From Deltaproteobacteria bacterium (GTDB lineage: Bacteria > Desulfobacterota > Desulfobacteria > Desulfobacterales > SpSt-501), in contig JACRCN010000084.1 in NCBI GenBank assembly GCA_016219005.1, positions 73,042 through 137,041 on the forward strand: DNA of 64,000 nucleotides, given 5' to 3'. A model generated the notes under the pieces. The model was not told where the DNA came from, did no database searches, and saw nothing but the letters and a program-made list of their open reading frames with translations. Shown one piece after another: positions 21,437 to 38,338 of the stretch. Each line of letters opens with the position of its first letter. Within the stretch, counting starts at the first letter, position 1. The translations under genes and the position numbers were made by a program.

Positions 21437-22599
21437 GCCATCCTTCCCAAGGCATCGACGATCCGCACCGTCAGCACCTTCTGGATCGGGAACGCCGCGG
21501 CCACCAGCGCCACGGTGACGACAGCCAGCACGTCCAACCAGAGCGTCGTCGGGCTGATGTCCATAATCGGGAAAATGTTCCCCACATAGCCCGTCAGGAT
21601 CTTCAGGGCGGGAAAAGTGCAGGCGATGCCGAGGGCCCCGCCCGCCACGCAGACCACCAGAGACTCTCCCAGAATCAGGCTCGTCAGGTGGAAGGCCCGG
21701 TAACCGAGCGTCTTGAATATGGCGAACTCGTGCATGCGCTCGCGCACCGACATGATCATGGTGTTCGCGACGACAGCCATGATGATGCCGATGATCACGA
21801 GCGAAACCATGCGGATGGCCATGAGGATGGCTTCGCTCATGGTCACGAACCCCAGTTGAAAGGCGCGCTCGGTTTCAGTCAGGGTTTCGGCCAGAGAGTT
21901 CTTGAAAACGGCGTCCACGGCTCCGGCAACCGCCGGGGCATCATCGGCATGGGTGATCTCGATGACGAAGAGACCGGTCCGGTTGGCTCGCCGGAGATAG
22001 CGCTCCTTGAGCCGCTCGTTCAGGTAGTCCCAGTGAAAGAACAGCTGGTTTTCGTCGGTGCTCTTGTCGCGCCCCTGGTAAATGCCCCGCACGACCATCG
22101 GCCAGTCTCCGGAGTAGATGGTCCCCTGAAGGGGCACGGTGTCGCCCACTTTCCAGCCGAAGCGCTCGGCCAGCCCGCGGCCGGCGACACAGCCCCTGCG
22201 GTCCTTGAGAAAGGCCGATCTCTGGTCCTCGGGCAGAACAAACTCCGGGTACAGGTCCAGGAAACTCTTGGGGTCCACGGCAAAGTTCGCGAAGAAATTC
22301 TTGCGGTCGATGTAGATGCCGCCGAACCATGTCATATGGGAGACGGCCTTGACGCCGTCGACCGCCCGGATTTTTTCCATGTAGGCGATCGGCAGGGAAA
22401 AGGTGAGGGATATCGCATGGCGGATGACGAGACGGTTGGCGGCGGCCGCTGAAACCCCCGCATACCAGGCATCCACGAGCGTGCTCAGCATGCCGAAGGC
22501 CAGCACTGCCACGGCAACGCCGAAAACGGTCAGCACGGCGCGCAGCGTGTGTCTAAACGCGTTCCGGAACAGCAGCTTCCAGAGCATTGGCCAGGACAC
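21433..22599 (-). CDS. ABC efflux permease (MacB/FtsX-like), second copy
   Basis: Same architecture as its neighbour, with a 4-nt overlap with the downstream gene. The start is uncertain because it overlaps the ATPase 3' end. Confidence 0.8.
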
Positions 22600-23269
22600 C
22601 CTTGTCGAGGTGTTTGACGGTGGCGGCCCGCCGGGCGGCCCGCGGGTCGTGGGTTACCATGATGATCGTCTTGCCCAGTTCCCGGCTCAAGCGCTCCATG
22701 AACACGAGCACATCTTCGGCCGCGGCGCGGTCCAGGTCGCCTGTGGGCTCGTCGGCCACTACGATGGTGGGGTCGGTGACCAGCGCGCGCGCGATGGCCA
22801 CGCGCTGCTGCTGGCCGCCGGAAAGCTGCCGCGGGTAGTGGTCCATGCGGTCCTGGAGATTGACCAGGCCCAGGACCGTCCGGACATGCTCCCGGCGCTC
22901 TCGGCGCGACAGATCCGTCAGGATCAGCGGCAGCTCCACGTTTTCAAAGGCCGTCAACACCGGGATCAGGTTGTAGAACTGGAAGATGAAGCCGACATGC
23001 GCGGCGCGCCAGGCGGCAAGCTGCGTTTCGGACAACGCCGCGATGTCGACGCCGCCCACGCGGATCGTGCCCGAGTCTGCCCGGTCCAGGCCCGCGATGA
23101 GGTTGAGCAGCGTGCTCTTGCCCGAGCCCGAGGGCCCCATGAGGGCCAAGAACTCCGATGCGGCGATGGTGAGGGAAATGTCCTCCAGCACCGGGATGAC
23201 CTGGTTCCCACGGCGGTAGGATTTCGTGATGTTACGGATATCGACGATGATCGGGCGCGTGGTGCTCAT
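22553..23269 (-). CDS. ABC transporter ATP-binding protein (MacB/LolD-type)
   Basis: Walker A 'GPSGSGKST', signature '[15 protein letters not shown]', Walker B 'ADEPTGDLD'. Confidence 0.9.
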
Positions 23270-23272
23270 TCG

Positions 23273-24490
23273 TCACTGTTTCGGAACCGACACGCGGGTT
23301 CCGTCCGTCAATTTTTCCACCGGTGCGACAGCGATGCGGCTTCCAATCGCCGGCCCCTCCAGCAGTTCGACGATCTCGCCCAGGCGCCGGCCGAGTTGCA
23401 CCGGGACCTCCCGAACTCGGTCGCCCTGGATGAGGAACACCCGGGGGGGACCGTTGCCCTGGGCCACGGCTGCCGCCGGCACCGCGCGCAAGGGCGCCTG
23501 CTCCCCCGGGCCGGTTTCGCGCGAAAGAAACGCCACCTTGGCGCTCATCTCAGGCAGAATCCGCGGGTCGCGCTCGAGAAAAGCGACCTTCACTGAAATC
23601 GAGGCCTTGCTGCGGTCGGCGGTCGGCAGGATCATGTGCACCCGGCCGGGGAAACGCGAATCCGGGAAGGCGTCCAGACGGATTTCGCAGGGCTGGCCGG
23701 TCTTCACTTGAGCGATGTTTGATTCCGATACATCCACCGCCACCAGGAGCGATTCCATGTCGGCGATGGTCACCACGGCCGCCTTGGCATCGGCCGTGGC
23801 CGCCAGCGGAGTCACGATGTCGCCGATGTCGGCGTTCTTGGTGAGCACCACCGCATCGAAGGGTGCGCGGATGTTGGTGTAGTCGAGGAGCACGGTCGCC
23901 TCCTCGAGGGCGGCCTGATTTGCGCGCAAGGCGGCGGACTGGCCCTCCACGGCCGCCATGGCGGTCCGGTGGCGGGCCTCGGCCGTGTCAAAGACCGAGC
24001 GAGCGATGGTCCCTTTTTCGGCGAGCGTTTTTTTGCGCGTGTAGTCCAGACGTGCGTTCGTCAGTTCGGCCAGCATCTGCTCCAGACTGTGTCGGGCGAC
24101 GGCGACGTTCTGGGCTGCCCGGTCCCGGGCGGCCACGGCGTCTCGGTTCTCCAGCCGGGCGATGACTTGGCCCTCCTTCACCCGGCTGCCCTCCTCGATG
24201 CCCAGGTACACCAGTCGTCCGGTCAGCTTGGAGGCCACGGCGGATTTGCGGTCGGCTACGACATAGCCGCTCGCGTTCAGCTGAGTCAGCGTCTGGGACG
24301 GGTAGATGTTCTGAACGGTGGTTGCCTGGATCGGCACCGCGGGCGTGAGGAGCCCCTGCCGGTAGAGCACGCCTAACGCTACGAGCAAGAGGAGCAGCGG
24401 AACGCCCCACGCCAGCCACTTCTTCTTTCGGGCCTTCGGTCGCAGGGCTGATTTTTCGATACGCAGCTTTTCCAGTTCCATCTCGGGCAT
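23273..24490 (-). CDS. Efflux periplasmic adaptor (HlyD/MacA family)
   Basis: A membrane anchor, coiled-coil and barrel-sandwich regions. The start was moved to the ATG at 24490 ('MPEMELEKL'), because the upstream extension looks non-protein-like. Confidence 0.8.
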   Translation of the reverse strand: MPEMELEKLRIEKSALRPKARKKKWLAWGVPLLLLLVALGVLYRQGLLTPAVPIQATTVQNIYPSQTLTQLNASGYVVADRKSAVASKLTGRLVYLGIEEGSRVKEGQVIARLENRDAVAARDRAAQNVAVARHSLEQMLAELTNARLDYTRKKTLAEKGTIARSVFDTAEARHRTAMAAVEGQSAALRANQAALEEATVLLDYTNIRAPFDAVVLTKNADIGDIVTPLAATADAKAAVVTIADMESLLVAVDVSESNIAQVKTGQPCEIRLDAFPDSRFPGRVHMILPTADRSKASISVKVAFLERDPRILPEMSAKVAFLSRETGPGEQAPLRAVPAAAVAQGNGPPRVFLIQGDRVREVPVQLGRRLGEIVELLEGPAIGSRIAVAPVEKLTDGTRVSVPKQ

Positions 24491-24768
24491 GGCCGACACT
24501 CCTCGCCGGGCAGATAGGGGGTTAACCGCCTTTCTACCACGGCTGCCAGGCCGTGCACAATACAAACCGCAGTCGCTTGGCAGTTCTCGCTGAACTGTTT
24601 TTTGACCAGACCGGGGGGTGCGGGTATGCTGAGTGGTGTTAGAAGCTATCTCAAAATAGCATCTGGCAGTCGAGGGCGGCGTTTTACGCCTCTGAAAAAT
24701 GCTCACCACCTGACGCGGTTGCGGCACTTTTTCAGCGGCGTGCGCCTTGCCCTCGGCTGTGATCTGCC

Positions 24769-24788
24769 ATTTTTGAAATGGCTTCTAT
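24769..24788. repeat. Direct repeat copy B (ATTTTTGAAATGGCTTCTAT)
   Basis: 19/20 identical to 20248-20267. It overlaps the wrbA stop codon. Confidence 0.6.
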
Positions 24789-25387
24789 GCTGATTGCTTC
24801 TTAGCTACTTCCGCAACGTGGGCTCCCTGGAATCGAGCGATTTTTATTTCGTTCTCTGACGGTTGACGACTGCCATCGACGCCAGCAAGAGTGCTCGCTC
24901 CATAGGGGGATCCGCCGGTGATTTCACTCATGTTCATGATTTCCTGGCAGGAATAGGGAACTCCCACCACTATCATGCCGTGATGCAACAAGGTGGAGTG
25001 AAACGAGGTGATCGTGGTTTCCTGTCCGCCGTGCTGCGTGCCCGTGGACGTGAACACGCTGCCCACCTTGCCGATCAAGTCGCCTTTCAGCCACAACCGG
25101 CCGGTCTGGTCGAGAAAATTGCGCATCTGCGCGCACATGTTGCCAAAACGTGTCGGCGTGCCAAAAATGATGGCATCGTAGTTCGGCAACTCGTCAACCG
25201 CCGCGATCCCCGCCGCCTGATCGAGCTTGGCACCGGCTTTTCGTGCCACGTCTTCCGGCATCAGATCGGGCACGCGCTTGATGATGACCTCGGCGCCTTT
25301 GACGCTGCGCGCGCCCTCAGCCACCGCTTTCGCCATGGTTTCTATGTGGCCATACATGCTGTAGTAAAGAACGAGAACTTTTGGCAT
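24785..25387 (-). CDS. wrbA: NAD(P)H:quinone oxidoreductase WrbA (flavodoxin-like)
   Basis: '[22 protein letters not shown]' and '[10 protein letters not shown]'. A GAGGAG ribosome-binding site sits upstream. Confidence 0.9.
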
Positions 25388-25890: not shown

Positions 25891-26343
25891 TCAAAGGCTT
25901 CGTTCCAAGTTAATGATTTTGGAGGGGCTGAATTGGTTCGCGCTAAAGAAATGAATCAGTTTGGTATCATTCCAGTCGACCAAGGTGTTGATTTTTTGAA
26001 CGCCGAGTGTTCTCAAATGATCCATAAATTCATTGATCAACTGCTTACCGATACCCTTATGCTGGCAATAGGGATCGACGCCGATGGTATCCAGTGTTGC
26101 TTTTTCCTTGGAAATACCATATTCTCCTATGTAGAGTTCCCCCATTACAAAACCCACCACCGTGCCATCTTGGTCCTCGGCCACCAGCGACGCGGGCAAA
26201 TAATCTTTGGTTTGAAAAAGCTTTTCAAACTTCAGCTCATAGTACTCCGGCCGGGGCGTTTTAAGCACTTTCTCGTCAATCCCAACCACAGCGTCAAAAT
26301 CGCCGGCCTTCATGAGTCTGATTTTAATGGCGCTCTCGTTCAT
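25891..26343 (-). CDS. GNAT-family N-acetyltransferase
   Basis: 'VGFVMGE' and the 'QHKGIGKQLI' acetyl-CoA-binding motif. Its ATG overlaps the upstream stop (ATGA at 26340-26343). Confidence 0.8.
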   Translation of the reverse strand: MNESAIKIRLMKAGDFDAVVGIDEKVLKTPRPEYYELKFEKLFQTKDYLPASLVAEDQDGTVVGFVMGELYIGEYGISKEKATLDTIGVDPYCQHKGIGKQLINEFMDHLRTLGVQKINTLVDWNDTKLIHFFSANQFSPSKIINLERSL

Positions 26344-27185
26344 GAAGCTCCTTTCTCTTTACTCTTTCTGATGATGGTTCTTTCTGCTTCAGGAAGAGGA
26401 GGCGGAACAGGCTCGCCGGAAATCGTCTTCACCGCACCAAAGCGAGGGGGGCAGGCATCAAAGCAAGTTCCGCATTTTATGCATTTTTCCTGGTCAATTA
26501 CATGGATCCGGTTTTTGCCGCCCGCAATTGCCTCTACCGGGCATTTTTTAAGGCAAATCATACAGGCCTGGCACTTTTCCGGATCAATATGGTACGAGAT
26601 TACTTCACGAAATAACCGGTCTACCTCCTCACGGGTGAAAAGACCGTCATATTCTGCCTTGTTTTCAAGGCGTGACTCCAGCTTCTCCCTTTTAACTATC
26701 TTGATGTAGGGGGTGAGCTTTGCAACTTCTTGAATTTTAGACTTTAATTCATTTTTATCTATTCCTTCGCTTTTGCCAAGCGGTCCTAACTCCTTCACCT
26801 TTCGGCCAAAATCATTAATAACGTCGGCAAAGAGGATTCCTTCGCCGCCCGACATAAATTCAATCCTTAACCGTTCTGGGTTCAACCCTATGTGCTCCAA
26901 TATTTTTTTACCTAGAAGCACCATGTTAAGTGCATGATAATTTCCATGAGTAATATAATTGCATTCCTTTAAACGGCAACCACCAATAAACACCCCGTCC
27001 ATCCCATTTGAGAAAGCCCGGAGCACGAAGGACAGGTCGACTCTACCGGAACACATGACACGAACAAGCCTGATTTCAGGCGGATATTGCAGTCTGGAAA
27101 CTCCAGCCAGGTCAGCCGCGCCGTAGGCTCACCAATGGCATACAAAACCTATCATTTTGGGTCTGAATACAAGTCCTGCACTCAT
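26340..27185 (-). CDS. bamF: BamF-like MvhD-domain protein fused to a 2x[4Fe-4S] ferredoxin; predicted selenoprotein (in-frame TGA at 27129-27131)
   Basis: Reading from the ATG at 27185 (GGTGA ribosome-binding site upstream) gives 'MSAGLVFRPKMIGFVCHW-TGA-AYGAADLAGVSRLQYPPEIRLVRVMCSGRVD...', in frame with the 26340..27056 ORF. This matches the MvhD 'CxWC-SYxGAD' N-terminus with the second Cys replaced by TGA. C-terminal motifs are 'CQACMICLKKCP' and 'CIKCGTCFDACP'. Confidence 0.8.
27094..27106 (-). other. Hairpin downstream of the bamF-like TGA (bacterial SECIS candidate)
   Basis: On the minus-strand RNA, CUGGA-GUU-UCCAG starts 22 nt after the UGA. Only the core stem is reported; the extended structure was not resolved by eye. 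Confidence 0.35.
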
Positions 27186-27237
27186 TCGTTCTCACCTTCG
27201 TCTTTTAGAAATCCCGGGTTTATTCATGCGTATACTT

Positions 27238-30200
27238 CTACACATCCCCAAGCGCTGCATCAATTTGGCTCAAGAGCTCTGCATCGGTGAAATGCTTTAG
27301 GGTAATAGCGCCTGTCGGGCACCGTGCATTACAGAGACCATCTCCTTTGCAGATGACAGGATTAACTACTGCTTTTTTGCCCTGTCGTGTCTCGCGAAAC
27401 TCTATGGCATCATACGTACAGGCGGATATACATGCCCCGCACCCCGTACACTTTTTCTGATCCACTTCGCAAACAGAACCGGAGGCGATGACCGTATCGT
27501 GTGAGAGAAGCGTTAAGACCCGGCCGGCCGCTCCATACGCCTGGCTGATCGCTTCCGGCATATGCTTGGGATATTGAGCCATTCCACAAAGATAAACGCC
27601 GTCTGCCGCAAACTCCACCGGTTTCAATTTGACATGGGCTTCTTTGAAAAAATCATCCGGTCCCAAAGAGACCTTGAATAATCCTGCTACTTCCTTGGCT
27701 CCCGCGGAAGGAATAACGGCGGCAGCCAGGGCGAGGCAATCGGCATCTATCGCAAGCTTCTTGCCCAAAATATAATCGGTCACGGCAATCCTCAGGCGAG
27801 ACGTGCCACCCTCCTTAACGGTCTCCACCAGAGGCTTATCCAGCGGATCATAGCGGATGAACTTCACCTCCCTATTCGACGCTTCCCGGTAATAATCCTC
27901 ACTGAACCCATATGTCATCATGTCCCGATAGAGGATGTAGATATCCATCAGGGGATTTATCTCTTTCAGTTTCAATGCGTTCTTTATCGACACGCTGCAA
28001 CAGATCCTGCTGCAGTAATTTCTGTCTTCATTTCTGCAGCCTACGCATTGGATCATCACGAGACTTTCTGCGCTAATTATCTTTTCGTCTCCTTTGCTGA
28101 TCCGCTCCTCCAACTCAAGGTGGGTTATTACCCGGTCATCTTCCCCATATAGGTATTCGGTGGGCTTATATATATCAGCACCTATAGCAATGACGGCGGC
28201 ACCATGTTTTATCTCTTCGACCCCTCTTTCAGAATTCACCTTGGTTACGAAATTCCCAACATAACCCGTAGCCTCCGTGATGGTGGCATCCGTATATACA
28301 TGTACGGAGGGGTGTCGATATACTTTTTCTACAAGATCACGCAAATACGCCTGAACATCACGCCCATCCAGGGTGTAATGAATTCTGCGTGCCATTCCCC
28401 CCAGGTCCTTATTCTTTTCCACCAGGAAAACCTCGTGTCCCTGGTTGGCAATGGAAAGAGCACACGTCATGCCGGATACACCGCCACCCACCACTAACGC
28501 CGTCTTGTTTACGGGTAGGTCCAATTCCTGCAATGGCTCCAAATGGCACGCGCGTGCCACCGACATCCGGATTATATCCTTTGCCTTCTGTGTGGCTTCT
28601 TCCTTTTCTTTAGAATGGACCCAGGAGTTATGTTCCCTTATATTGGCCATTTCGAAGTAATACTGATTGATTCCCGCCTCCCGAAGGGTGTCCCGGAATA
28701 ACGGTTCAAGGGTCCTGGGGCTGCAGGCAGCGACTATCACCCGATTGAGCCCTTTTTCCTTTATAATGTCCGTTATTTCTTTGGCACAATTTGAAGCGCA
28801 TGAAAACAGCTGTTCCTGAGCGTAGACAACATGGGGTAAGGTCAAGGCATATTCAACTGTGGAAGGAACACTTACGACTCTTCCGATATTCGCCCCGCAA
28901 TGGCACACAAAGACCCCTATCCGGGGTTCTTCCCTGGAGACATCCTTCTCCGGCGGATAAATCCTTTCCTGGGTCAGCTTCCCTCGCCGGTAGTCAAGGA
29001 GTTCACCACATTGGGAGCCGGCTCCGCTGGCGGTAAAAACCGACTCGGGAATATCGGTGGGACCCTGGAAGGCCCCGCTTACAAAGATCCCGGGCCGGGT
29101 GGTCGAAAGGGGATTGGAAGGAATTGCTTTACAGAATCCGTGTGAATTGAGCTCGATTCCGAACTTATCCGCCAGATCCTCATAATCCGCAGGTGGATTC
29201 AATCCAACGGATAATACCACAAGATCGAATTCTTCCTCCTTTACCCCGTCCTCGGTCGTAGCGTATCGTATCGTTACATTCTTGCTTTCCTGGATCTCTT
29301 TCCCGATTGAGACATAGCTTCTTATAAATCGGACCCCGGGAAGGTTCTCCGCTCTTTGGTAAAAGCGTTCGAAATCTTTTCCGTAGGAACGAATATCGTT
29401 ATGGAATATGGTACACTCCGCCCCGGCGTCATGATCCTTTGTCAAAATCACCTGTTTCTGGGTATAAGTGCAGCATACGGCTGAGCAATAGCTGTTATCG
29501 CCCGGGGTAACCCGTCTGGAACCGACGCATTGAATCCAGGCTGTTTTATGGGGATGCTTTTTGTCGGAAGGGCGCAGGATCTCACCTTCGTATGGCCCGG
29601 TGGAGCATAACAGTCGTTCATAGTCCATACTGGTGACCACGTTCTGCATCTTCCCGTAGCCATAGTCGCCCTTCACCCCAGGGTCAAATGGCTCAAGCCC
29701 GGGAGACAGAATTATCGAAGCAACCTTAATTTCTATCTTCTCCGGCTTTTGCTGAAAATCAATGGCATCATTTTTACAGACGCCTTCGCAGATACGACAC
29801 TTCTTCTCTTTAAGGTAGAGACAGCTTTCATCGATATATGCGACAAGGGGAATCGCTTGGGAGTAGTATATATGGACGGCTTTATTTTTCGATATTTCCT
29901 GATTAAAAGAATCAGGGTATTTGACGGGGCAGTATTCTACACATGTAGTACAACCCGTGCATTTGTCTTCTAAAATGTATCGGGGTTTTTTAAGCAGGGT
30001 TACCTTGAAGTCCCCTGCCTCTCCTTCGACACTGTCGATTTCAGTTAACGTCAGGATCTCTACATTGGGATGCCGGCCGACCTCGACCAGTTTGGGCGAG
30101 AGTATTCACATGGAACAGTCGTTGGTTGGAAAGGTCTTGTCAAGCTGCGCCATATGGCCGCCGATGGCTGGTGCTTTCTCAACCAGGTAAACCTTGAAAC

Positions 30201-30336
30201 CGGCAATGGCAAGATCGAGGGAGGCCTGAATACCGGAAATTCCTCCACCCACCACCATTACATCCCCAAAATTAGTATTCACAAGACCTTTACAAAACAG
30301 TTGAACTTTTTCTTCAAGCAACAGTTCTTTTTGCAC
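27238..30336 (-). CDS. bamE: BamE-like double HdrA-type flavoprotein/FeS protein (about 1030 codons); predicted selenoprotein (in-frame TGA at 30106-30108)
   Basis: I translated 30336 to 29676 by hand. It reads '...[16 protein letters not shown]...[33 protein letters not shown]...[12 protein letters not shown]...[11 protein letters not shown]...' with no other stop and runs into the 27238..29676 ORF in the same frame. There are two FAD GxGxxG sites, the HdrA motifs 'CSAVCC' and 'CSRICC', and a C-terminal 2x[4Fe-4S]. The GTG start has a GAGGTGA ribosome-binding site. Confidence 0.85.
30073..30090 (-). other. Hairpin downstream of the bamE-like TGA (bacterial SECIS candidate)
   Basis: On the minus-strand RNA, CUGGUC-GAGGUC-GGCCGG forms a 6-bp stem (including G-U pairs) starting 15 nt after the UGA. 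The loop contains GGUC, reminiscent of the E. coli fdhF SECIS apical loop. Confidence 0.45.
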
Positions 30337-30404
30337 TTCCGATCACCTCATCCAATATTTTAAGCCCGCAATGTCCGGGCTGGCCGGGGTTAACCGCACT
30401 GACT

Positions 30405-31556
30405 CTAAATAACTTCCTGTATGATCTCGGTGATGTCCTTAATTTCTATTTTATCGGCAACACCAATGGTTGACCTGCTATCCTCGAAATTGGCGATGCA
30501 ATAAGGGCAGGAAGTAACCAGCACCTCGGCTCCGACACCGATCGCCTGTTCCAACCTCAAATCGGAGAATCTTTCACCCTTTGGAGTTTCCATCCAAATC
30601 CGGCCGCCTCCCCCTCCGCAACAGAGGCTATCACTGCGCGATTCTGGCATCTCAATCAGTTCCAGACCAGGTACCTTCTTCAAGACCTCCCGGGGTTCGT
30701 CATATATGCCGTTGTGCCGACCCAGGTAACATGGGTCGTGATAAGTAACTTTCTTCCGATACGCCTTGTTAAGCTCAAGCCTTCCTGCATTCATGAGCTG
30801 GAATAAATATTGCGCGATATGAACCACCTCAAAGTCCACCCTAAATTCGGGATACTCGTTCTTGAAGCTATGGTAGCAATGAGGGGAAGAAACAAGGATT
30901 TTTTTCACCCCATTATCGATAAACGCTTTGATATTTTCCTTGGCCAAGCGTTTGAATAAATCCTCATCGCCGGTCTTGCGGATGCTCTCTCCGCAGCAAT
31001 TCTCCTTGGATCCCAGTATGCCGTAATGAACAGCCGCTCGGTTAAGAATAGTGGCGGTAGCCGCCGCCGCCTTTTTCAATCTTGGGTCATAGCTGGGGTA
31101 GCAGCAGGGGAAATATAATATTTCGGTGCCCTCGGCGAAGGTTTTTACAGAAAGACCTTCAGCCCAATTTGACCTATTATTGCGCTCTTCATTCAGAGGG
31201 TTACCGCGGCCACGGAGGCTCGCGCTCACGGTGCGGATAGGTCGAACCGGACCCGGGAAAACCCCGTATTCCGTGGCAAGCTTGCGTAAGGCTACCCCGG
31301 ATTCGATCTGTTTTACGTCCCGGGGGCATTGCTGAGGGCATCTTCCGCAGGTCGTACAACGCCAAATATCTTCACTTTCTATATCCGTCAAACCGAACGC
31401 AGCTTCGCGGACTATCTTGCGCATGCTGAAGATTCTAATCCTATTCCATGGGCAAACCACATCGCATAAGCCGCATTGAAAGCACGATTTGAAGGCTTCT
31501 CCACCTTTGGCTTTGATGGCATCTACGATCTCTTTAAAATCAGCTACATTCTCCAC
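30405..31556 (-). CDS. bamD: BamD-like HdrD-type FeS protein (2x[4Fe-4S] plus two CCG domains)
   Basis: 'CFQCGLCDVVCP', 'CTTCGRCPQQCP'; CCG-domain motifs 'PCCY', 'CCGES', 'DPCYLGR', 'CCGGGGG'. Confidence 0.8.
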   Translation of the reverse strand: MENVADFKEIVDAIKAKGGEAFKSCFQCGLCDVVCPWNRIRIFSMRKIVREAAFGLTDIESEDIWRCTTCGRCPQQCPRDVKQIESGVALRKLATEYGVFPGPVRPIRTVSASLRGRGNPLNEERNNRSNWAEGLSVKTFAEGTEILYFPCCYPSYDPRLKKAAAATATILNRAAVHYGILGSKENCCGESIRKTGDEDLFKRLAKENIKAFIDNGVKKILVSSPHCYHSFKNEYPEFRVDFEVVHIAQYLFQLMNAGRLELNKAYRKKVTYHDPCYLGRHNGIYDEPREVLKKVPGLELIEMPESRSDSLCCGGGGGRIWMETPKGERFSDLRLEQAIGVGAEVLVTSCPYCIANFEDSRSTIGVADKIEIKDITEIIQEVI

Positions 31557-31591
31557 GGTCGTTCTTAACCCTCTATTTTCGACGGATGGTT

Positions 31592-32140
31592 TTAGCCCTT
31601 CTTGGAGATTGACATCCGGGCGACGGTTTCCATTATCTTGTCAAGTCCAAATTTGTTTACCAACGATTCCAATCCTGTCTTCAACTCTTCTGCGTTCGCT
31701 TCTTCTTCTACTTCCTCTTCTCTTTCTTCGTAGATCAGGGCATCCGTTATGCACCACTGAACGCACAAGGGCTCTGATAAAGGCGGATCGCTTAAACACA
31801 TATCGCATTTTAGCGGCAGACCGGAATCGGGCTCCTTGAAAAGATCCCTGGATGGGCAGGAAGCCCTGCAGAAGGCACACTCTTCGTATTCCTTTCCGTC
31901 AATCGTGTACTTGTCTCGGCCCATGCATTCGGCTTTAGCATACTCACCCGCATATACAGGAACATATATGTCTTTTAACGGTTCATGAATAACACGAATA
32001 CGAGACCTCGCTGGATTGTTGCTGCTGTATTTCGGCGCAGCGTGGAAGGCGGAGCAGGCTAGCTCACATGCCCGGCAACCGTTGCATTTATCAACATCAA
32101 CTTTTATTGATTTAACAATTTTCTTTTTTTTCTCACCCAT
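31592..32140 (-). CDS. bamC: BamC-like polyferredoxin subunit
   Basis: 'CNGCRACELAC', 'CAFCRASCP', 'CDMC...CVQWC'. Size and position directly after the AOR-like gene fit. Confidence 0.75.
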   Translation of the reverse strand: MGEKKKKIVKSIKVDVDKCNGCRACELACSAFHAAPKYSSNNPARSRIRVIHEPLKDIYVPVYAGEYAKAECMGRDKYTIDGKEYEECAFCRASCPSRDLFKEPDSGLPLKCDMCLSDPPLSEPLCVQWCITDALIYEEREEEVEEEANAEELKTGLESLVNKFGLDKIMETVARMSISKKG

Positions 32141-32161
32141 GATAGTTAGCGCCTCTTCACT

Positions 32162-34165
32162 TTAATTCTCTCTGCTTCCGCTGAAGTCTTTGGCGGGCTC
32201 GTCTTGACTATCCGCCAAGATCCCCCGCTTAACAAAGTCTTCGATCACGTAATCCAAACCAAGATCATGCAAGGATTCCTTAGTAGGAATACCCTGATGA
32301 TTCCACCCCTTGAATTTGTAATACGCATCCAGGAGCTCTTTTTCAAGGTCGGGAAATCTTTTCTTCCAATGGTTCACTGGAGGCTTATCATCTTTTCTCC
32401 GCATGCCTCTTCTTATATTAATGGCCCTAACTAAAGTTCGGTACCTTTTGACTGCTTGCGTCAGTTTAGCTTCATCCATATCGATCCCGGCACCGGATGA
32501 GATAAATTGCGGGAAATTGTGCATATGATATGGAGGCTTCAGAGGAAATGATGACAAACCGGCGCACATCCCGAGGGCGTCATCGATATAGTGCATCCGC
32601 TCCTGCCAGTCGACAATGTTACAACTCATTTCAACCGTCGGATAATAGGGGATCGATTTTTCTCCGCGTGGTTCCCAGTCCAAGAAATATTGCTTAAACT
32701 TTTCATCAGGAACCTGGACCCAATCCTTTACAAACGCTTCTCTCTCTTCTCTGGTAGCAAAAGGCGCCTGGGGGAACTGGCCTTCGATTTGGGTAATGTT
32801 TATCTTCTCACCGGTGGAATACATAAGAAAATAAATTGGATTCAGCATGGATAGCTTGAGAGGCAGCTGCTCATGTTTTTTGATGTTATTATGAGCATAT
32901 GCTTCTGCGCCCTTACCAATCTGTTGGGCCGCCCAATAGGTGCCTTTGGCTAAAACATCCCCTATCCCTTCACGCCGAACAATTCTGTCAAGTAACCAAT
33001 AAAATTTCCCCTCGTTATCGGACGGCATTCCCGACATGTCATCGTCAGTTAAAATGGCGGCTTCGTAGAGCTCAAGGGCGAAGGCCATAACTTGCGGGGT
33101 TGAGTATGCGTCCACTCCATACTCCGTAGCACGTTGAGCGATTTTTAAGCCAAAATCCAAATCAGACATGGCCGCCATTGTATAAGTAAGTTTCGAGAAG
33201 CATTTCATCATGTAGGTTGGAAGCCCTGGGACGGAAAGGGTTGCCCCGCATTTCATCGGACAGTTATAGCAGCTGATTAGCCGCGTCCGCGCGCTTTCCA
33301 TGGTCCCCGTCCACTTCTTTTCGACTTCCTCGTTCCAAAAATCTTTTCTGCGAATGCGGGAATTTCCCCACATGAAATTCTCGGTATGCCACTTCTCATC
33401 ATGCACTTTCATCTCTTGCGGTGACCCCAGCCCAGCTAAAATGGGCATTACCCCCGGAATTGGGTTTTTTTCGCGGTGTTTTATGTATTTCAGCACTTCG
33501 TTGCAAAGCTCCATGAATGCATCCGGTCGGGCAATATGGACATCTTTTGTTCCACGAACGACTATGGCCTTTAACCCTTTGTCTCCCATTACGGCGCCTA
33601 TTCCGCCTCGGCTGGCGCTGGACCGGCCCTGCTCGATGGAAGCAAAATAAACCCTGTTTTCACCGGCCAAACCGATAGCCGCCACCTGGGCTTTCGGCTC
33701 CTTCAACTCCTGTCGGATGAGTTCCGCAGTTTCAACAGCGCCTTTACCCCGCAAATGCGAGGCGTCACGTAATTCTACCTTGTCGTTGTTTATCCACAGA
33801 TAAACCAGACTGGCGGACTTGCCGCGAAGGATCACTTTGTCGTAACCGGCATACTTCAATTCCGGTGCCCAAAATCCACCCATCATTGAAAATGCCATTA
33901 ACAACGTCTGAGGCGAAATGGTGGAAACAATGGTACGATTACAACCGGTAGCCGGTGTACCGCATAAAAGACCGGCGCTGAATATGAGTAGATTATCGGG
34001 AGAAAAAGGTTCAACTTCAGGAGGAACCCTGTCCCACAATATCTTGGCGTTAGTGCCTAGCCCCCCCAGATAAAGTTCGGTATCCCTTGGGTCGGTTGCG
34101 ACCCTCTCAATGTTTCCTCGGGATAGGTCAACTTCTAAATTAAACCCTGTCTCTGCGTACCTCAA
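32162..34165 (-). CDS. bamB: BamB-like tungsten/molybdopterin aldehyde:ferredoxin-oxidoreductase-family subunit (class II benzoyl-CoA reductase active-site subunit or close paralogue)
   Basis: The N-terminus 'MRYAETGFNLEVDLSRGNIERVATDPRDTELYLGGLGTNAKILWDRVPPEV' matches my recollection of Geobacter BamB closely. The AOR-family length is 667 aa. The TTG start at 34165 has a GGAGAAAG ribosome-binding site. Confidence 0.8.
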   Translation of the reverse strand: MRYAETGFNLEVDLSRGNIERVATDPRDTELYLGGLGTNAKILWDRVPPEVEPFSPDNLLIFSAGLLCGTPATGCNRTIVSTISPQTLLMAFSMMGGFWAPELKYAGYDKVILRGKSASLVYLWINNDKVELRDASHLRGKGAVETAELIRQELKEPKAQVAAIGLAGENRVYFASIEQGRSSASRGGIGAVMGDKGLKAIVVRGTKDVHIARPDAFMELCNEVLKYIKHREKNPIPGVMPILAGLGSPQEMKVHDEKWHTENFMWGNSRIRRKDFWNEEVEKKWTGTMESARTRLISCYNCPMKCGATLSVPGLPTYMMKCFSKLTYTMAAMSDLDFGLKIAQRATEYGVDAYSTPQVMAFALELYEAAILTDDDMSGMPSDNEGKFYWLLDRIVRREGIGDVLAKGTYWAAQQIGKGAEAYAHNNIKKHEQLPLKLSMLNPIYFLMYSTGEKINITQIEGQFPQAPFATREEREAFVKDWVQVPDEKFKQYFLDWEPRGEKSIPYYPTVEMSCNIVDWQERMHYIDDALGMCAGLSSFPLKPPYHMHNFPQFISSGAGIDMDEAKLTQAVKRYRTLVRAINIRRGMRRKDDKPPVNHWKKRFPDLEKELLDAYYKFKGWNHQGIPTKESLHDLGLDYVIEDFVKRGILADSQDEPAKDFSGSREN

Positions 34166-34290
34166 TTCTTTCTCCTTCTATATTACCTGAATTCGTGGCA
34201 TGCTTTTTGGCCAATCATGATGGAGCCGATTTGTTTATGATTTTACTGACGATCCGCGTCGGCCCGGAGGTCAGGGCGGAGCGTTTTCAG

Positions 34291-34329
34291 CTATAAATTA
34301 ACTATAAAATAGCTATATTGTATTTATAG
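34291..34329. promoter_or_regulatory. AT-rich nested palindrome / operator-like element at the predicted bamB transcription start
   Basis: Outer arms are CTATAAA (34291-34297) and TTTATAG (34323-34329). The central perfect palindrome is ATAGCTAT (34309-34316). Confidence 0.35.
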
Positions 34330-34351
34330 GAGGTTCCTCGGATTTTGTCAA
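34323..34351 (-). promoter_or_regulatory. Sigma-70-type promoter candidate for the bamB-like operon
   Basis: On the minus strand: TTGACA (34351-34346), a 17-nt spacer, then TATAAA (34328-34323). It lies about 150 nt upstream of the bamB-like start. Confidence 0.5.
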
Positions 34352-34618
34352 GAAAAAAACTCATCGGAGGGGAATTGCGGAATTCAGGAATCGACGGCTC
34401 TGGATCAGCGCCAGTTCCGCTATCGAAGGCGACGAACTTCCGTATGGCAGGTGAAATGTGGTGGCCAAATCGGCTGTAAGCGGAAGCCGACTGCGGGGGC
34501 GCATGCCTACCGCTTATGGCCAGAGCCTGAGAAAGGACCTCGCAGCCTCTGCCCTCCAGCCTGCGGCGAATCGCAACCGCCTTCCAAGCCGCACCAGCAG
34601 ACGGGGTTTTATAACAGC

Positions 34619-34960
34619 CTATTTGGCCCGGCTGCGGGCATAGGTCAGCCCGCCGGTCACCTCGATCGTGGTCGCGTTGATGGCATCGTTTTCGATGCAG
34701 TGCATGATGCTGGCCGCGATCTCCTCGGGTTCCACCAGTCTTCCGCTGTGGACGTCCTTCAGGATGGCCGCGAGCGCTTCCGGGTTCATGCCTCTCAGGA
34801 TCGCCGTGTTGACATAGCCCGGCGCGATCGCCACCACCCGGATGTTGCGGATCTTGCGGATCACGAACTCGCCCACCAGGATCTTCGGCATCAGGGCCAC
34901 GGCCGCCTTGGTGGCGCTGTAGTTGAGCTGGCCGACCTGGCCCTCCTTGTTGATGGAGGA
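34619..34960 (-). pseudogene. 3' remnant of a short-chain dehydrogenase/reductase (SDR) gene
   Basis: The open frame '..SSINKEGQVGQLNYSATKAAVALMPKIL...IRVVAIAPGYVNT...' contains the SDR YxxxK catalytic motif and the C-terminal half only. An in-frame TGA at 34961-34963 stops it, and no Rossmann TGxxxGxG region lies upstream. The fragment is high-GC, unlike its surroundings. Confidence 0.65.
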
Positions 34961-34986
34961 TCAGCATGGCCTCCGTAAGCAGCCAT

Positions 34987-35081: not shown

Positions 35082-35216
35082 TCATTTGTGCTTTTGGATC
35101 AGCTCGATATACACCCCGTTCAGCTCTCTTTGTTCGATCACCGCAATCTTTGTACCTCTCGACCCATCGACGATCTTGCCCCATACGAATTCCATGTGAA
35201 AGGATTCAGCGGCCAT
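35082..35216 (-). pseudogene. Possible 3' remnant of a methylmalonyl-CoA-epimerase/VOC-family gene
   Basis: The tail 'FHMEFVWGKIVDGSRGTKIAVIEQRELNGVYIELIQKHK' resembles VOC/epimerase C-termini ('..G.KIAF.....GV.IEL..'). The upstream part of the frame overlaps dctM and is not VOC-like. Confidence 0.3.
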
Positions 35217-36531
35217 ACATGCTGGCCGGTATGACGGTTGAAATCCACGGGAAAGCAAAGAGAATGGCAATGCCGAAAGCCTCGAAGAGCAAAAACCAGA
35301 AACAACCCCTGAAGATCTCGTGCATGGGTACATCCCGGACGACACCGGCTAAGACATAGACATTGAGCCCCACCGGCGGCGTCATCAGCCCGACTTCAGC
35401 CATCTTGACGCACAGGACCCCGAACCAGATGGGATCGTAACCCAGCTGGGTGGTGACGATCGGAAACATGATGGGTTGGGTGATGATGAGCATTGAGAAA
35501 GTATCCATGAACATTCCCAGGGGTATATAGACGATCAAGAAACCCGTCACGATCATCCAGGGCGATACCGGCAGACCGCCCACCCAACCCGATATGACTT
35601 GGGGAACCTGGGCCAGGGTAAGAAACTTGGCGTAGAGTCCGGCGCCGATCAGGATCATGAAAACCATGCAGCTCGTGCGGAGGGTGTCGAAGAAACAGAG
35701 CTTGATGTTTCCCCCCATCATCCCCTTCTCCACTCGCCCCCCGAACAGCATCATCAGCAACGCGACAAAAGCGCCCACGGAAGCGGCTTCGGTAGGGGTG
35801 AACCAGCCGATGTACATGCCCCCGATCACCAGGAAGAACAAAAGGGCCATTCCCCAAACCCCTTTGAGGGAAGCAAACCGCTCCCGCCAGGTGTAGTTCT
35901 CCGGCGCGGGACACAGGTTGGGATAGATCCGGGTCAGGAAGAAAAGCCCAATGACGTAAACAAATACGCTCAACACCCCGGGCAGGATCCCGGCGATGAG
36001 TTGCGCGCCGGCCGAGACATCGTTGATCGATGCATAAAAAACGGAGACAACGCTCGGCGGGATCAGAATGGCCAGGGTCCCGGAAGCGGCCACGATGCCG
36101 CAGGCCAGTTTCCGATCGTACCCCAAGGCTCGCATTTCGGGGATGGCAATCGCCCCCATGGTAGCGGCGGAGGCAACGCTCGATCCGCAGCAGGCGCCAA
36201 ATCCCGCCGAAGCGATGAAGGTGGCGATGCCGAGCCCGCCCGGGAGTTTGGAAAACCACTTCCGGCCGATGGTGTAAAGATCGCTGCTGATGCCGGCTTT
36301 GAATCCGAAATGCCCCATAATGATAAAAAGCGGCACCACGGCTAAGAGGTAATTGGCCGTATTCGCGTAAGGAGAGACCTTCAATACGGTCAGGGCATAG
36401 TAGGGGCCTTTCAAGGCAAGGATACCCAGAACACCAGTGATACCCAGAGAGGCATAAATCGGCATCCCCATCCACATCAGAGCCAGCACCAAAAAGACGC
36501 TGAGAATAGACGCAGTTCCGGGTTCGATCAT
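35206..36531 (-). CDS. dctM: TRAP transporter large permease (DctM family)
   Basis: A polytopic membrane protein of typical DctM sequence. The start was moved to the ATG at 36531, preceded by GGAGG. Confidence 0.88.
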   Translation of the reverse strand: MIEPGTASILSVFLVLALMWMGMPIYASLGITGVLGILALKGPYYALTVLKVSPYANTANYLLAVVPLFIIMGHFGFKAGISSDLYTIGRKWFSKLPGGLGIATFIASAGFGACCGSSVASAATMGAIAIPEMRALGYDRKLACGIVAASGTLAILIPPSVVSVFYASINDVSAGAQLIAGILPGVLSVFVYVIGLFFLTRIYPNLCPAPENYTWRERFASLKGVWGMALLFFLVIGGMYIGWFTPTEAASVGAFVALLMMLFGGRVEKGMMGGNIKLCFFDTLRTSCMVFMILIGAGLYAKFLTLAQVPQVISGWVGGLPVSPWMIVTGFLIVYIPLGMFMDTFSMLIITQPIMFPIVTTQLGYDPIWFGVLCVKMAEVGLMTPPVGLNVYVLAGVVRDVPMHEIFRGCFWFLLFEAFGIAILFAFPWISTVIPASMYGR

Positions 36532-36593
36532 CTTATTCCCTCCATAAACAGTCAGATGTTGGACCAATCATCTCGAACCGATAGGGATACCGC

Positions 36594-37124
36594 TCAATCA
36601 CCGATCTGACGCAGGTCGGGCAGATCGAGAGGTAATGCCCCCATGAGCCGGCGGAAGTTCACCCAAATGTCGACCACCAACTGGAGGCAGGTCAGCCAGC
36701 ACCCCAGGGGGACGAGAGCTTTGGCCCACCAGATCTGCATTTGCACCGAACCCCAGCGGAATTCGTTGATTTCATAAGACCGAAGAGCTTCCCTGGCGCT
36801 TTGCCATCCCATGACAGCCAGAAAAATAAAACAGAGGACCCAGCAGAGCGTATCCAGTTTGATCGCGCTGCGGATTGAAAACCTTCTCAGCCCCAGGACA
36901 ACCCGCGTGTGTCCTCTGGCCTCTTGGGTCCAGCTGAGGGTCATAAACACGGCGATGACCAACAGTACCTCATTGAACTCGAAGACCCCGGCAATAGGAT
37001 AATTGAAAACGTAACGACTGGTAGTATCCAGGGTGGTGCTTATCATCATCATGGCGATCGCGGCCGCAGCAATGAAGCTGAAGAATATATTGATTTTATT
37101 GAGCCAGCGCGCAAGGTTCTCCAT
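36594..37124 (-). CDS. dctQ: TRAP transporter small permease (DctQ family)
   Basis: A 4-TM protein of about 176 aa between the dctP-like and dctM-like genes. Confidence 0.8.
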   Translation of the reverse strand: MENLARWLNKINIFFSFIAAAAIAMMMISTTLDTTSRYVFNYPIAGVFEFNEVLLVIAVFMTLSWTQEARGHTRVVLGLRRFSIRSAIKLDTLCWVLCFIFLAVMGWQSAREALRSYEINEFRWGSVQMQIWWAKALVPLGCWLTCLQLVVDIWVNFRRLMGALPLDLPDLRQIGD

Positions 37125-37204
37125 CTCGCAATATACCTCCCCTTGGGAAGGCAGCCGGAACGAATTAGGACATCCGCCCGGCTACCTTCATAGCACCATC
37201 GTTT

Positions 37205-38338
37205 TTACTTTTTTTCGTACTTCGCCTGATAGATTTCATAGGGATTTTTGAGCTTGCCCTGCGGCTCATACTTGGCGATGAGGCTGCGTGCTTTATCGAT
37301 GAATTCGACCCCATTGTACTTCGCTGGCTTGGCGACCTTTTCGGCCCAGTCGTTCACCTGCGCCGGCTGCACCATGCTGGTGGCCTTTTTGATCTCTTCA
37401 TCCGACCACTTTGTGAATTTGGCACCGTTCTTGACCATGACATCGAGGCTTTCTTCCAGAAGCTTGTTGTACAACTCGACATACTTGTATTTGTAAACGT
37501 CATCCGCGGTTTTTTTAAATACATCCTTCAGGTCGTCGGGCAGGGAATTCCACACGTCCAGGCCCATGACCACCGTGGTGGGCGCATGGGCCCCGGCGCC
37601 GACTTCGATAATGTTGGGAGCCTGCTCATAGAGCTTCGCTTTTTCGGCCGTGACAAAGCAAAACGCGAAGACTCCGTCGAGAATCCCGCGCTCCAACGAC
37701 TGATAGACTTCCGCGGCCACCACGGGCATTCCCCTTCCTCCCAGGCGGTCGATGGTTTCAGCACCAATTCCGTAGCCTCGGATTCTCATCCCCTTGAGTT
37801 CGGAGACTTGAGTGAGGGGCTTTTTGGAAAAAAGCGGGCAATAATCCCAGTTGGTGAAATACAGGACTTTGCAGCCGTTTCTTTTTTCCCACTCATCCTT
37901 CAGAGGGGGATAGGTATCGTACATTTCCTGGCAGACCTTCAGCAGGGTGTCGGCGTGGTTGCAGCCCATGAAGTACCACTCCAATCCTCGGCTGAGCGGC
38001 ACCTGGGCAGGATAATAGCCGTAAGAAATCAGGGATAATTCTGAAAGCCCGTCCCTGACCGCCTGCAAATGTTCTCCCACTTTGTGAAGGGAGGATGCCC
38101 AATATTTTTCGATTTTGATCCGGCCGCCGGATCGTTCCACCACTGTGTCGAGATACCAGTTGTCAAGCTGGGCCGGGGCCGCTGACGCTTGGATGTAGCA
38201 GTCGTACTTCATGGTAATGACTTTGCCCGACTGCGGTGCGGCGTGCAAGATGCCCCGGGCCGGGCCCATGAGGAGTCCCCCCATGGCGGCTGCAGCGGTT
38301 GATTTCAGAAATGTCCTTCGATCCATTCCCTTGCCCAT
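37205..38338 (-). CDS. dctP: TRAP transporter substrate-binding protein (DctP family)
   Basis: Twin-arginine-like signal 'MDRRTFLKSTAAAAMGG' and DctP-like length and sequence. Confidence 0.85.
   Translation of the reverse strand: MGKGMDRRTFLKSTAAAAMGGLLMGPARGILHAAPQSGKVITMKYDCYIQASAAPAQLDNWYLDTVVERSGGRIKIEKYWASSLHKVGEHLQAVRDGLSELSLISYGYYPAQVPLSRGLEWYFMGCNHADTLLKVCQEMYDTYPPLKDEWEKRNGCKVLYFTNWDYCPLFSKKPLTQVSELKGMRIRGYGIGAETIDRLGGRGMPVVAAEVYQSLERGILDGVFAFCFVTAEKAKLYEQAPNIIEVGAGAHAPTTVVMGLDVWNSLPDDLKDVFKKTADDVYKYKYVELYNKLLEESLDVMVKNGAKFTKWSDEEIKKATSMVQPAQVNDWAEKVAKPAKYNGVEFIDKARSLIAKYEPQGKLKNPYEIYQAKYEKK

Follow-up and report, generated by a model that had tools for sequence, protein, structure and literature searches.

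A short-form class II benzoyl-CoA reductase cluster with a BamF-BamH chimera and two predicted selenoproteins in a Desulfobacterota-like genome

Class II benzoyl-coenzyme A (CoA) reductase, a tungsten enzyme that attacks the benzene ring with neither oxygen nor ATP, is the key enzyme of aromatic breakdown in strictly anoxic sediments and among the few biocatalysts that work below the potential of ferredoxin. A 64-kb stretch of contig JACRCN010000084.1 in the deltaproteobacterial assembly GCA_016219005.1 (positions 73,042 to 137,041; hereafter the window, the stretch to which statements on absent genes apply) contains a gene cluster, bamBCDEF', that almost certainly encodes the core of such an enzyme, with two selenoproteins among its predicted subunits. 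The best explanation of the cluster as a whole, held with rather more confidence than doubt, is that it is a short form of the class II reductase into which electrons are fed through the subunit designated F', an apparent chimera of BamF with the C-terminus of BamH. The selenoproteins and the enzyme type are themselves already known biology; what is new here is that the missing bamGHI genes are explained by a conserved F::H chimera, the mark of a short architectural variant that may work without confurcation of reduced nicotinamide adenine dinucleotide (NADH).

A chimeric BamF subunit

The Geobacter enzyme is a Bam[(BC)2DEFGHI]2 complex, known from crystal structures of BamBC (4Z3W-4Z40) and from a cryo-electron microscopy (cryo-EM) preprint (10.64898/2026.04.10.717634). 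According to the preprint, NADH and reduced ferredoxin are confurcated by BamGH, a module of the HydBC type, the external reduced ferredoxin being received by the C-terminal H1/H2 clusters of BamH; BamI, which is contacted by the winged helix of BamF, passes electrons on to BamE at its C-terminal clusters; and the [2Fe-2S] cluster and selenocysteine (Sec) 19 of BamF lie on the route to the bifurcating flavin adenine dinucleotide (FAD) of BamE. From this FAD a low-potential electron passes via a cysteine pair and the clusters of BamE and BamC to BamB, and a high-potential electron via BamD to an electron-transferring flavoprotein (ETF). Short-circuits kept the authors of the preprint from showing the coupled reaction in vitro.

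Canonical bam loci of other genomes, of which L018 is an example, encode a BamF of 255 amino acids with a winged-helix tail, a NuoE-like BamG, a NuoF/HydB-like BamH of 642 amino acids that ends in a 2x[4Fe-4S] domain, and BamI. The F' protein of the window aligns with canonical BamF up to the motif RLF-xE (residue ~193); everything after that point aligns with the BamH C-terminus, and the two have the tail ISGEPVPPPxPExxRTI in common. This ferredoxin domain closes the chain with a pair of CxxCxxCxxxCP motifs and shares 59-79% identity with the BamH C-termini of canonical loci; its best matches in the PDB lie at the very C-terminal ends of HydB/NuoF-like bifurcating subunits (9BOV_B, 7T2R_B, 8A6T_B). 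The canonical 255-residue proteins end in VRYDESxKxFALA, an ending that F' lacks, and the winged-helix tail is missing with it. It seems close to certain from these alignments that F' is a BamF::BamH-C-terminus chimera, with nothing but the winged helix exchanged. A first-pass annotation of the window, made from its sequence alone, had described the product as a BamF-like fusion of MvhD and ferredoxin, which is accurate as to domain content but not as to architecture, since the C-terminal part is that of BamH and the whole is not a canonical BamF.

Family scans of all 64 kb detected no NuoEFG-like bamGHI genes, no dch, had or oah and no benzoate-CoA ligase gene, in agreement with the first-pass annotation, which had reported these absences (a dienoyl-CoA hydratase, dehydrogenase and ring hydrolase among them). 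For bamGHI, F' offers a structural answer: the tail that would dock BamI has been exchanged for the ferredoxin domain of BamH. The use of a different electron donor, which had been left open as one of several alternatives, thus becomes the more likely reading.

Distribution of the short form

A scan for BamB relatives with one genome per GTDB species gave at least 600 matched stretches, and 594 of those listed encode relatives. The locus comparisons rest on the best 80 of these at least 600 stretches, with flanks of up to 10 kb downstream of bamB and from less than 1 kb to 10 kb upstream, depending on the locus. bamF could be read whole in 58 loci, 24 of which encode F' (as does L001, with a frameshift), 31 a canonical F and two an F-G fusion. 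In the short-type loci (24, or 25 with L001) neither bamG, nor the core of bamH, nor bamI was found within the 10 kb or less that were available downstream of bamB. The two F-G fusions (L050 and L077, Cys-type loci of Aminicenantes-like and Eubacteriales-like metagenome-assembled genomes) are 397 amino acids long and constitute a third variant of the adaptor. L001, the closest GTDB relative among the matches listed (BamB 92% identical), has its bamF' frameshift at about codon 107 (~16876-17707), which is most likely an error of long-read assembly rather than the sign of a pseudogene.

The fusion is not confined to these loci, and the short form has metagenomic relatives in the thousands. A search of 5.8 billion proteins returned 7902 relatives of F' at E<=1e-30; each of the top 120 carries FlpD and Fer4 domains, breaks off at the Sec codon, and goes by no more specific name than "F420-non-reducing hydrogenase iron-sulfur subunit" or the like. 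Among the cluster members of the F' family, none from a cultured organism was found. Across this large family the fusion is conserved and the cluster cysteines are invariant; an origin of F' by recent deletion in the genome of the window was considered and rejected, as the fusion is common to the whole family. The short bamBCDEF' is a widespread and, as far as the open literature shows, apparently undescribed architectural variant of a known enzyme.

In a neighbour-joining tree of the ferredoxin domain (~90 residues), F' domains stand apart from all BamH domains, with one sequence at the base, which argues for an old fusion and not for repeated recent deletions. In a tree of BamE, most short-type loci fall into one clade, but several are interleaved with canonical loci, so that paralogous clusters may have recombined, or the short form may have arisen more than once. 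A single origin of the short operon is favoured by the first tree and not by the second.

Proposed electron supply without BamGHI

Because the short form has neither the dock for BamI nor the NADH site, and because the ferredoxin-receiving domain has been kept on the adaptor, we infer that the enzyme is independent of BamGHI. Such independence, with ferredoxin as the sole donor, is narrowly probable; on the stronger proposition that bamBCDEF' would be a self-sufficient minimal class II reductase running on reduced ferredoxin alone, belief and doubt are evenly balanced. In the mechanism proposed here, the short enzyme would work without the BamGHI confurcation module: reduced ferredoxin would donate directly to the ferredoxin domain of F', and electrons would move on via the C-terminal clusters of BamE and the [2Fe-2S]/Sec19 site of F' to the bifurcating FAD of BamE. 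One electron would then travel uphill through the Cys74-Sec77 pair and the clusters of BamE and BamC to the tungsten-pterin in BamB, where benzoyl-CoA would be reduced to 1,5-dienoyl-CoA, and the other would travel downhill via BamD to a high-potential acceptor, which is ETF in Geobacter (no ETF genes are encoded in the window). The distal motif of BamD, of the CxxS type as in Geobacter, fits the reading of an otherwise unchanged HdrA-type bifurcation. Ferredoxin-only input is thermodynamically feasible with a donor at ~-500 mV and acceptors at ~-620 mV and, for ETF, ~+16 mV (10.64898/2026.04.10.717634).

In the close short-type locus L083, whose F' is 89% identical, the cluster is followed (12955-19504) by the gene for a sigma-54 activator and, ~4 kb downstream of the cluster, by those for succinyl-CoA synthetase (SucCD) and a 2-oxoacid:ferredoxin oxidoreductase of four subunits. 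An oxidoreductase of this type is the kind of ferredoxin-reducing system that feeds the Geobacter enzyme, and its presence fits the direct input of ferredoxin.

Several points weigh against electron input through F' alone. Drawing on ferredoxin only would spend more low-potential electrons than the scheme with ferredoxin and NADH. The partner docked by the ferredoxin domain could be other than free ferredoxin, for example a hydrogenase, formate dehydrogenase or 2-oxoacid oxidoreductase, and an AlphaFold2 model of F' (from an alignment of 36 sequences) gave no usable geometry, its mean predicted local distance difference test (pLDDT) score being 38.9. The interspersion of the two types in the BamE tree implies that some genomes probably hold both, and in these GHI could be shared in trans. 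As to novelty, no description of an F-ferredoxin chimera or of a GHI-less enzyme was found in the open literature, and subscription-only papers, which lay outside the search, may already describe the variant.

The bamGHI genes could also lie beyond the 64 kb in view, like the GHI-like genes of strain NaphS2. The cluster would then encode only the core of an enzyme that assembles with BamGHI from elsewhere and keeps the confurcation of NADH and ferredoxin intact, an explanation that is unlikely but, as the main rival, deserves to be taken seriously. NaphS2 sets a precedent with BamB-F and BamG-I homologues in separate clusters, both reported to respond to benzoate (PMC2988823); two of the compared loci (L069 and L051) carry two adjacent bam clusters, and short and canonical BamE of the Desulfobacula type are sisters in the tree, which suggests that both forms coexist in one genome. 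F', however, is without the winged helix through which BamF and BamI meet in the cryo-EM structure, and its own copy of the ferredoxin-accepting domain of BamH would be redundant in an enzyme with GHI bound. Partnership in trans also has to contend with the conservation of the fusion over a large family with invariant cluster cysteines, and with the lack of GHI, in every short locus, from the 10 kb or less available downstream of bamB.

Identity of the catalytic core

Compared with the crystallised Geobacter metallireducens BamB (4Z3W_A), the BamB protein of the window reaches 1252 bits and is 79.4% identical across 650 ungapped residues; ordinary aldehyde:ferredoxin oxidoreductases (AORs) score at most 218 bits. 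In this alignment it retains Cys322, the protein ligand of tungsten, and the CxxCxxxC cluster motif, and all four residues of the proton-relay/Zn site (Glu251, His255, Glu257 and His260; motif SPQEMKVHDEKWHTENF) are identical. The Cys322 thiolate ligand and the invariant Glu251/His255/Glu257/His260 proton-donating site are what separate BamB from aldehyde oxidoreductases (review PMC12096430). BamC, whose gene lies 21 nt downstream of bamB, scores 268 bits against 4Z3W_E with 64.8% identity. BamBC is thus orthologous to the crystallised catalytic module, with every known catalytic residue retained.

The remaining subunits have the expected domain content. The first CCG domain of BamD ends in CxxS (C227...S230), presumably the same position as the Cys-to-Ser change at the distal cluster of Geobacter BamD (10.64898/2026.04.10.717634). 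BamE scores 924 bits, in three stretches, against the NCBIfam model HdrA2 and 635 bits against HdrA 8RVU_a, and the N-terminal part of F' matches Pfam FlpD (2.5e-46) and, over residues 7-144, MvhD (5ODC_D, E=2.5e-43). The gene order B-C-D-E-F recurs in dozens of genomes. These results bear out the first-pass annotation, which had recognised the B-F architecture of a class II, tungsten-type reductase from a BamB-like N-terminus in an AOR-family protein, a polyferredoxin, an HdrD-like CCG protein, a double HdrA-like protein of about 1030 codons and the fusion of MvhD with ferredoxin, content with which Pfam and NCBIfam agree. Of the outcomes that it had named as fatal, the two that concern sequence did not materialise: BamB lies far above ordinary AORs in score and has both Cys322 and the Glu/His site, and the B-F order is kept across dozens of genomes, as would not be expected of Flox-Hdr or Mvh-Hdr genes unrelated to Bam.

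A rather improbable alternative is that the enzyme is a paralogue that acts on another aryl-CoA or on an alicyclic CoA ester, which would be compatible with either model of electron input. Several BamB paralogues of unknown substrate exist in G. metallireducens and Desulfococcus multivorans, the genes for benzoate-CoA ligase and dch/had/oah are absent from the window, and upstream of bamB there is a sigma-54 operon with a glutaconate-CoA-transferase-family enzyme, an SCP-x-type thiolase with a DUF35/BbsA-like partner, and a transporter of the tripartite ATP-independent periplasmic (TRAP) type. The known divergent paralogues, however, are only 64-66% identical to Geobacter BamB (PMC5109826, PMC1924859), whereas D. 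multivorans BamB2, which is regarded as a true reductase, is 79% identical (PMC5109826); the BamB of the window, at the same level as BamB2, is therefore counted among the true benzoyl-CoA reductases. It has kept every residue involved in contacting or protonating the ring, and the upstream operon has a sigma-54 promoter of its own and is separated from bamB by gene fragments and an island boundary.

Selenocysteine codons and SECIS elements

The genes bamE and bamF' each contain one in-frame TGA (Table 1), and each open reading frame is continuous when it is read through. In the related loci, the aligned codon of bamE is TGA in 57 and TGC/TGT in 11, and that of bamF is TGA in 52 and TGC/TGT in 10; Sec is present in both E and F' in 23 of the 24 short loci. 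Each TGA is followed by a hairpin. The seven pairs of the bamE hairpin, synonymous positions included, are all intact in 54 of 54 distinct Sec-type sequences versus 2 of 11 Cys-type sequences (RNAalifold, -10.4 versus -2.0), and the bamF hairpin is intact in 49 of 49 Sec-type sequences versus none of 10 Cys-type sequences. The AGGU loop of bamE and the GUU loop of bamF' are invariant across Sec-type genes, and in the minimum free energy fold the bamF' hairpin may be lengthened by two further pairs beyond a bulged A. In the bSECISearch model, a bacterial selenocysteine insertion sequence (SECIS) is a stem-loop 16-37 nt downstream of the UGA with a G in its apical loop, and both hairpins have these properties. 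Because TGA alternates with Cys codons in the homologues, and because the hairpins are kept in the TGA genes and mostly broken in the Cys genes, both TGAs are read as Sec codons; the sequence comparison strongly supports this decoding and, with it, a function of the hairpins as SECIS elements.

The proposal that the seemingly broken E and F frames are each joined by one selenocysteine is thus upheld by the related loci, although the operon was not as hidden as first described, for Sec19 of Geobacter BamF, at the same codon number as in F', has been modelled (10.64898/2026.04.10.717634), and Sec and a SECIS element have been annotated in BamE of D. multivorans (dmul_C24500/10; PMC5109826). In Geobacter BamE, a Cys59-Cys62 disulfide is placed between the bifurcating FAD and cluster E3 (10.64898/2026.04.10.717634); by its spacing and position, the C74/U77 pair of the window BamE would be its counterpart.

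It is very improbable that bamE and bamF are nonsense-broken pseudogenes in a decaying acquired island, or that the low-GC (guanine plus cytosine) segment is an assembly chimera. The in-frame stops, the aberrant GC content and the truncated gene fragments at the island edge could be taken that way, as could the lack of Sec machinery in view (no selA, selB, selC or selD, no tRNA-Sec and no other tRNA gene was found in the 64-kb window). Yet the two stops coincide exactly with positions at which 60-plus homologues have either TGA or Cys, the hairpins behind them are preserved only where the codon is TGA, the 8 kb contain no further stop or frameshift, and the same block with the same GC offset is present in the independent assemblies of L083, L084 and L001. 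Scarcely credible is a Flox-Hdr or Mvh-Hdr complex unrelated to the AOR-family neighbour, as generic names (HdrA2, VhuD and TfrB/HdrD-like in family models; "F420-non-reducing hydrogenase iron-sulfur subunit" for F' in databases) might suggest, for all these family matches are below curated cut-offs, the five genes stand in the same order with 64-92% identity in all 50-plus loci recovered by BamB alone, and a double-HdrA fusion with an MvhD-like Sec19 protein is the BamE/BamF signature of the solved Geobacter complex (10.64898/2026.04.10.717634).

Gene layout and neighbourhood

The operon consists of six genes on the minus strand (Table 1). Five co-directional genes with gaps of 20-70 nt had been described in the interval 25891-34351; strand and gaps (21, 35, 68 and 52 nt from bamB to bamF') hold, but the lowest 453 bases (25891-26343) are a sixth gene, a GNAT acetyltransferase, and not part of F, while bamB starts at 34165 and 34351 is the first base of the promoter. 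The start codon of bamB is TTG in the window and ATG in relatives. By layout, the promoter, bamB, bamC, bamD, bamE, bamF' and the GNAT gene form one predicted transcription unit, in which the ATGA overlap points to translational coupling of the GNAT gene to bamF'.

Table 1. Coordinates of the bam operon and its elements in the 64-kb window
Feature	Position	Strand	Description
Promoter	34323-34351	minus	TTGACA (34351-34346), 17-nt spacer, TATAAA (34328-34323); putative, sigma-70-type
bamB	32162-34165	minus	TTG start, 667 aa; predicted tungsten-bis-metallopterin catalytic subunit; Pfam AFOR_N + AFOR_C
bamC	31592-32140	minus	182 aa; polyferredoxin partner of BamB
bamD	30405-31556	minus	383 aa; HdrD/HdrBC-like; two cubane-cluster motifs; Pfam CCG x2 + Fer4_8
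bamE	27238-30336	minus	1032 codons; fused double HdrA-like flavoprotein; GTG start after GAGGTGA Shine-Dalgarno
bamE UGA (predicted Sec)	30106-30108	minus	codon 77, motif NDCSM-U-ILSP; pairs with Cys74 (CxxU)
bamE SECIS hairpin (putative)	30073-30090	minus	CUGGUCG-AGGU-CGGCCGG, nt 19-36 from U of UGA
bamF-like (F')	26340-27185	minus	281 codons; Pfam FlpD/MvhD + two Fer4
F' N-terminal part, residues 1 to ~193	26607-27185	minus	MvhD-like [2Fe-2S] adaptor + second domain, colinear with canonical BamF
F' C-terminal part, residues ~194-281	26343-26606	minus	2x[4Fe-4S] ferredoxin domain, BamH/HydB type
bamF' UGA (predicted Sec)	27129-27131	minus	codon 19, motif FVCHW-U-AYGAAD
bamF' SECIS hairpin core (putative)	27094-27106	minus	CUGGA-GUU-UCCAG, nt 26-38 from U of UGA
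GNAT acetyltransferase	25891-26343	minus	150 aa; Pfam Acetyltransf_1; start ATG overlaps bamF' stop (ATGA)

Just 3' of the promoter lies an AT-rich repeat of the motif TATAGCT/TATAGTT (~34288-34318). The arrangement TTGACAAAxTCC...TAtAAA with two to three copies of TATAGCT/TATAGTT is also found upstream of bamB in L001, L002, L003 and L030, and the repeats are perhaps an operator carried along with the bam block. No sigma-54 promoter precedes bamB; the single perfect TGGCAC-N5-TTGC site of the window (42133-42148) serves the upstream CoA-transferase operon. An open reading frame for 221 amino acids at 34302-34967, considered as a gene upstream of bamB, was rejected as spurious, having no family matches and no homologues in related loci; what this stretch really encodes, in a different frame, is the dehydrogenase remnant described below. 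A scan of 24.5-35.5 kb against Rfam (E<=1) found no riboswitch or known RNA, only one chance match to a snoRNA.

Homologues of the GNAT protein, with 78-82% identity, are encoded directly after F' in L023, L025, L031, L040, L052 and L054, and others near canonical clusters. The bam cluster of G. metallireducens includes an N-acetyltransferase gene, bamK (Gmet_2077), that is induced 21.8-fold on benzoate (PMC1924859), and the GNAT gene is probably its counterpart. At 500 bp downstream of the GNAT gene, on the same strand, a WrbA-type NAD(P)H:quinone oxidoreductase is encoded (24785-25387, minus; 357 bits to NF002999), and beyond it a MacAB efflux set with an adaptor of the resistance-nodulation-division (RND) type (20270-24727). 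A gene for an FdhD-like sulfurtransferase/insertase, which has been reported inside the bam cluster of ORM2a, is absent from the 64-kb window, but 11 of 25 loci have it no more than ~4 kb from their short-type cluster. In ten of them (L023, L025, L031, L034, L041, L043, L057, L059, L062 and L063) it is downstream of F', with L023 and L062 carrying it on the other strand; in L051 it is upstream of bamB, at a distance of ~3.9 kb.

Upstream of bamB, between the TRAP operon and the bam promoter, the edge of the island holds the C-terminal 40% of a short-chain dehydrogenase/reductase (SDR) gene (34620-34958, minus; PF13561 positions 139-236 of 236) and a 43-residue fragment (~35085-35200, minus) that resembles the C-terminus of the VOC/glyoxalase family by eye, a scan with Pfam having found no family. 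The region 38398-45194 (minus) encodes an AtoS/AtoC-like two-component system upstream of the perfect sigma-54 -24/-12 site, and the site precedes a glutaconate-CoA-transferase-family A/B pair (1POI_A, 1e-39), the SCP-x-type thiolase and the DUF35/BbsA-like protein; the TRAP transporter genes (35206-38338) come after those for CoA-transferase and thiolase. An organic or alicyclic acid may be what this operon activates and cleaves. Genes for a Family I CoA-transferase and thiolase-like proteins recur upstream of bamB in the canonical loci L012, L027, L029, L037 and L045.

A horizontally acquired module

The bam cluster has a GC content of 48% in a window whose outer parts have 63%, and belongs to an accessory, GC-poorer segment (~24700-45292, 48-58% GC) within a chromosomal host that is marked as such by rlmN, ffh, rimM and trmD at 0.8-5.3 kb. 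The PutA protein of the window is 90% and 84% identical to proteins of metagenomic contigs, and the named matches, near 70%, are metagenome-assembled genomes labelled "Desulfoba...". From 45292 to 61182 the window is colinear with a relative, L082, at 80-89% nucleotide identity. The colinearity with L082 and that with another relative, L081, both stop at 45292, where the GC content drops, next to the gene for NAD kinase (45300-46193). L081 has a different TRAP transporter between putA and the NAD kinase gene, which makes this a variable locus. The block 26174-34398 is 85-87% identical to blocks of L083, L084 and L001 in unrelated contexts, where it is also GC-poorer than its flanks.

Because of the deviating GC content, the break of synteny at 45292 and the block shared between unrelated contexts, the bam module is considered a horizontal acquisition by a high-GC, Desulfobacterota-like chromosome, an origin to which its sequence composition and synteny consistently point. 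Searches of the window for integrase and transposase domains, for tRNA genes and for direct or inverted repeats at the borders found nothing beyond chance, and a plasmid collection contained no BamB relatives.

Implications and comparison with known systems

For the window itself this is ordinary biology, a catabolic module gained by horizontal transfer. The wider interest lies in the enzyme, whose sole mechanistic model, from the 2026 cryo-EM preprint (10.64898/2026.04.10.717634), was built on the Geobacter complex with its eight subunits. From a natural form with five, one could learn which parts of the machine are essential, and such a form would possibly be a simpler target for biochemistry and structure. 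If the short form is indeed self-sufficient, a single HdrA-type bifurcation would be enough to reach ~-620 mV, serial confurcation-bifurcation would be an electron-saving option and not a requirement, and ~40% of the closest BamB loci would use a simpler wiring with a selenenylsulfide instead of a disulfide at the bifurcation site. The reading of bam genes in metagenomes would change as well, since F' is currently labelled a hydrogenase subunit, UGA codons break BamE and BamF into pieces, and marker-gene surveys assume the B-I architecture.

Among the closest known systems is that of G. metallireducens, with which the window shares BamB (79%, with the tungsten ligand and proton relay), BamC, an HdrD-like BamD with a CxxS-type distal motif, a fused double-HdrA BamE, an MvhD-like BamF with Sec at codon 19 and an N-acetyltransferase gene in the cluster. 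Unlike G. metallireducens, the window has no bamG, bamH core or bamI, its BamF has a BamH-type 2x[4Fe-4S] domain in place of the winged-helix tail, and its BamE has Sec where Geobacter has Cys62, if CxxU spacing is a guide to position. Since the window encodes no NADH-binding subunit, the serial confurcation-bifurcation scheme cannot apply to it as drawn.

Two sulfate reducers of the Desulfobacterota have a B-F set that is not followed by GHI, a precedent for BamB-F without adjacent bamGHI. Strain NaphS2 has a benzoate-induced BamB-F cluster (NPH_7171-7176) apart from its BamG-I homologues (PMC2988823, 2010), and a reconstruction of BzS1 (2026) names the enzyme BamB-F. The two papers do not describe the architecture of BamF, and in NaphS2 GHI-like genes exist elsewhere. 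D. multivorans, also of a sulfate-reducer lineage, resembles the window in having a BamE with Sec and a SECIS element, but its cluster has duplicated bamB-D genes split by the ETF genes bamOP (PMC5109826).

Beyond benzoyl-CoA reductases, the MvhAGD-HdrABC complexes of methanogens (5ODC, 8RVU, 7BKB) likewise feed an HdrA-type bifurcating flavoprotein through the [2Fe-2S] adaptor MvhD and use a CCG-domain subunit as the high-potential branch. In the system of the window, by contrast, HdrA is duplicated and fused, the low-potential branch would end in a tungsten enzyme and not in free ferredoxin, there is no hydrogenase, and the adaptor has an additional ferredoxin domain. That domain is itself shared with the HydB/NuoF-like subunits of HydABC-type enzymes (8A6T_B, 7T2R_B, 7Q4V_B, 9BOV_B), which are the top matches of F' residues ~193-253 in the structural database and have the same two CxxCxxCxxxCP motifs, the same terminal position in the chain and clusters proposed to face ferredoxin; unlike in those subunits, it has been detached in F' from the FMN/NADH-binding core and grafted onto a protein of the MvhD type.

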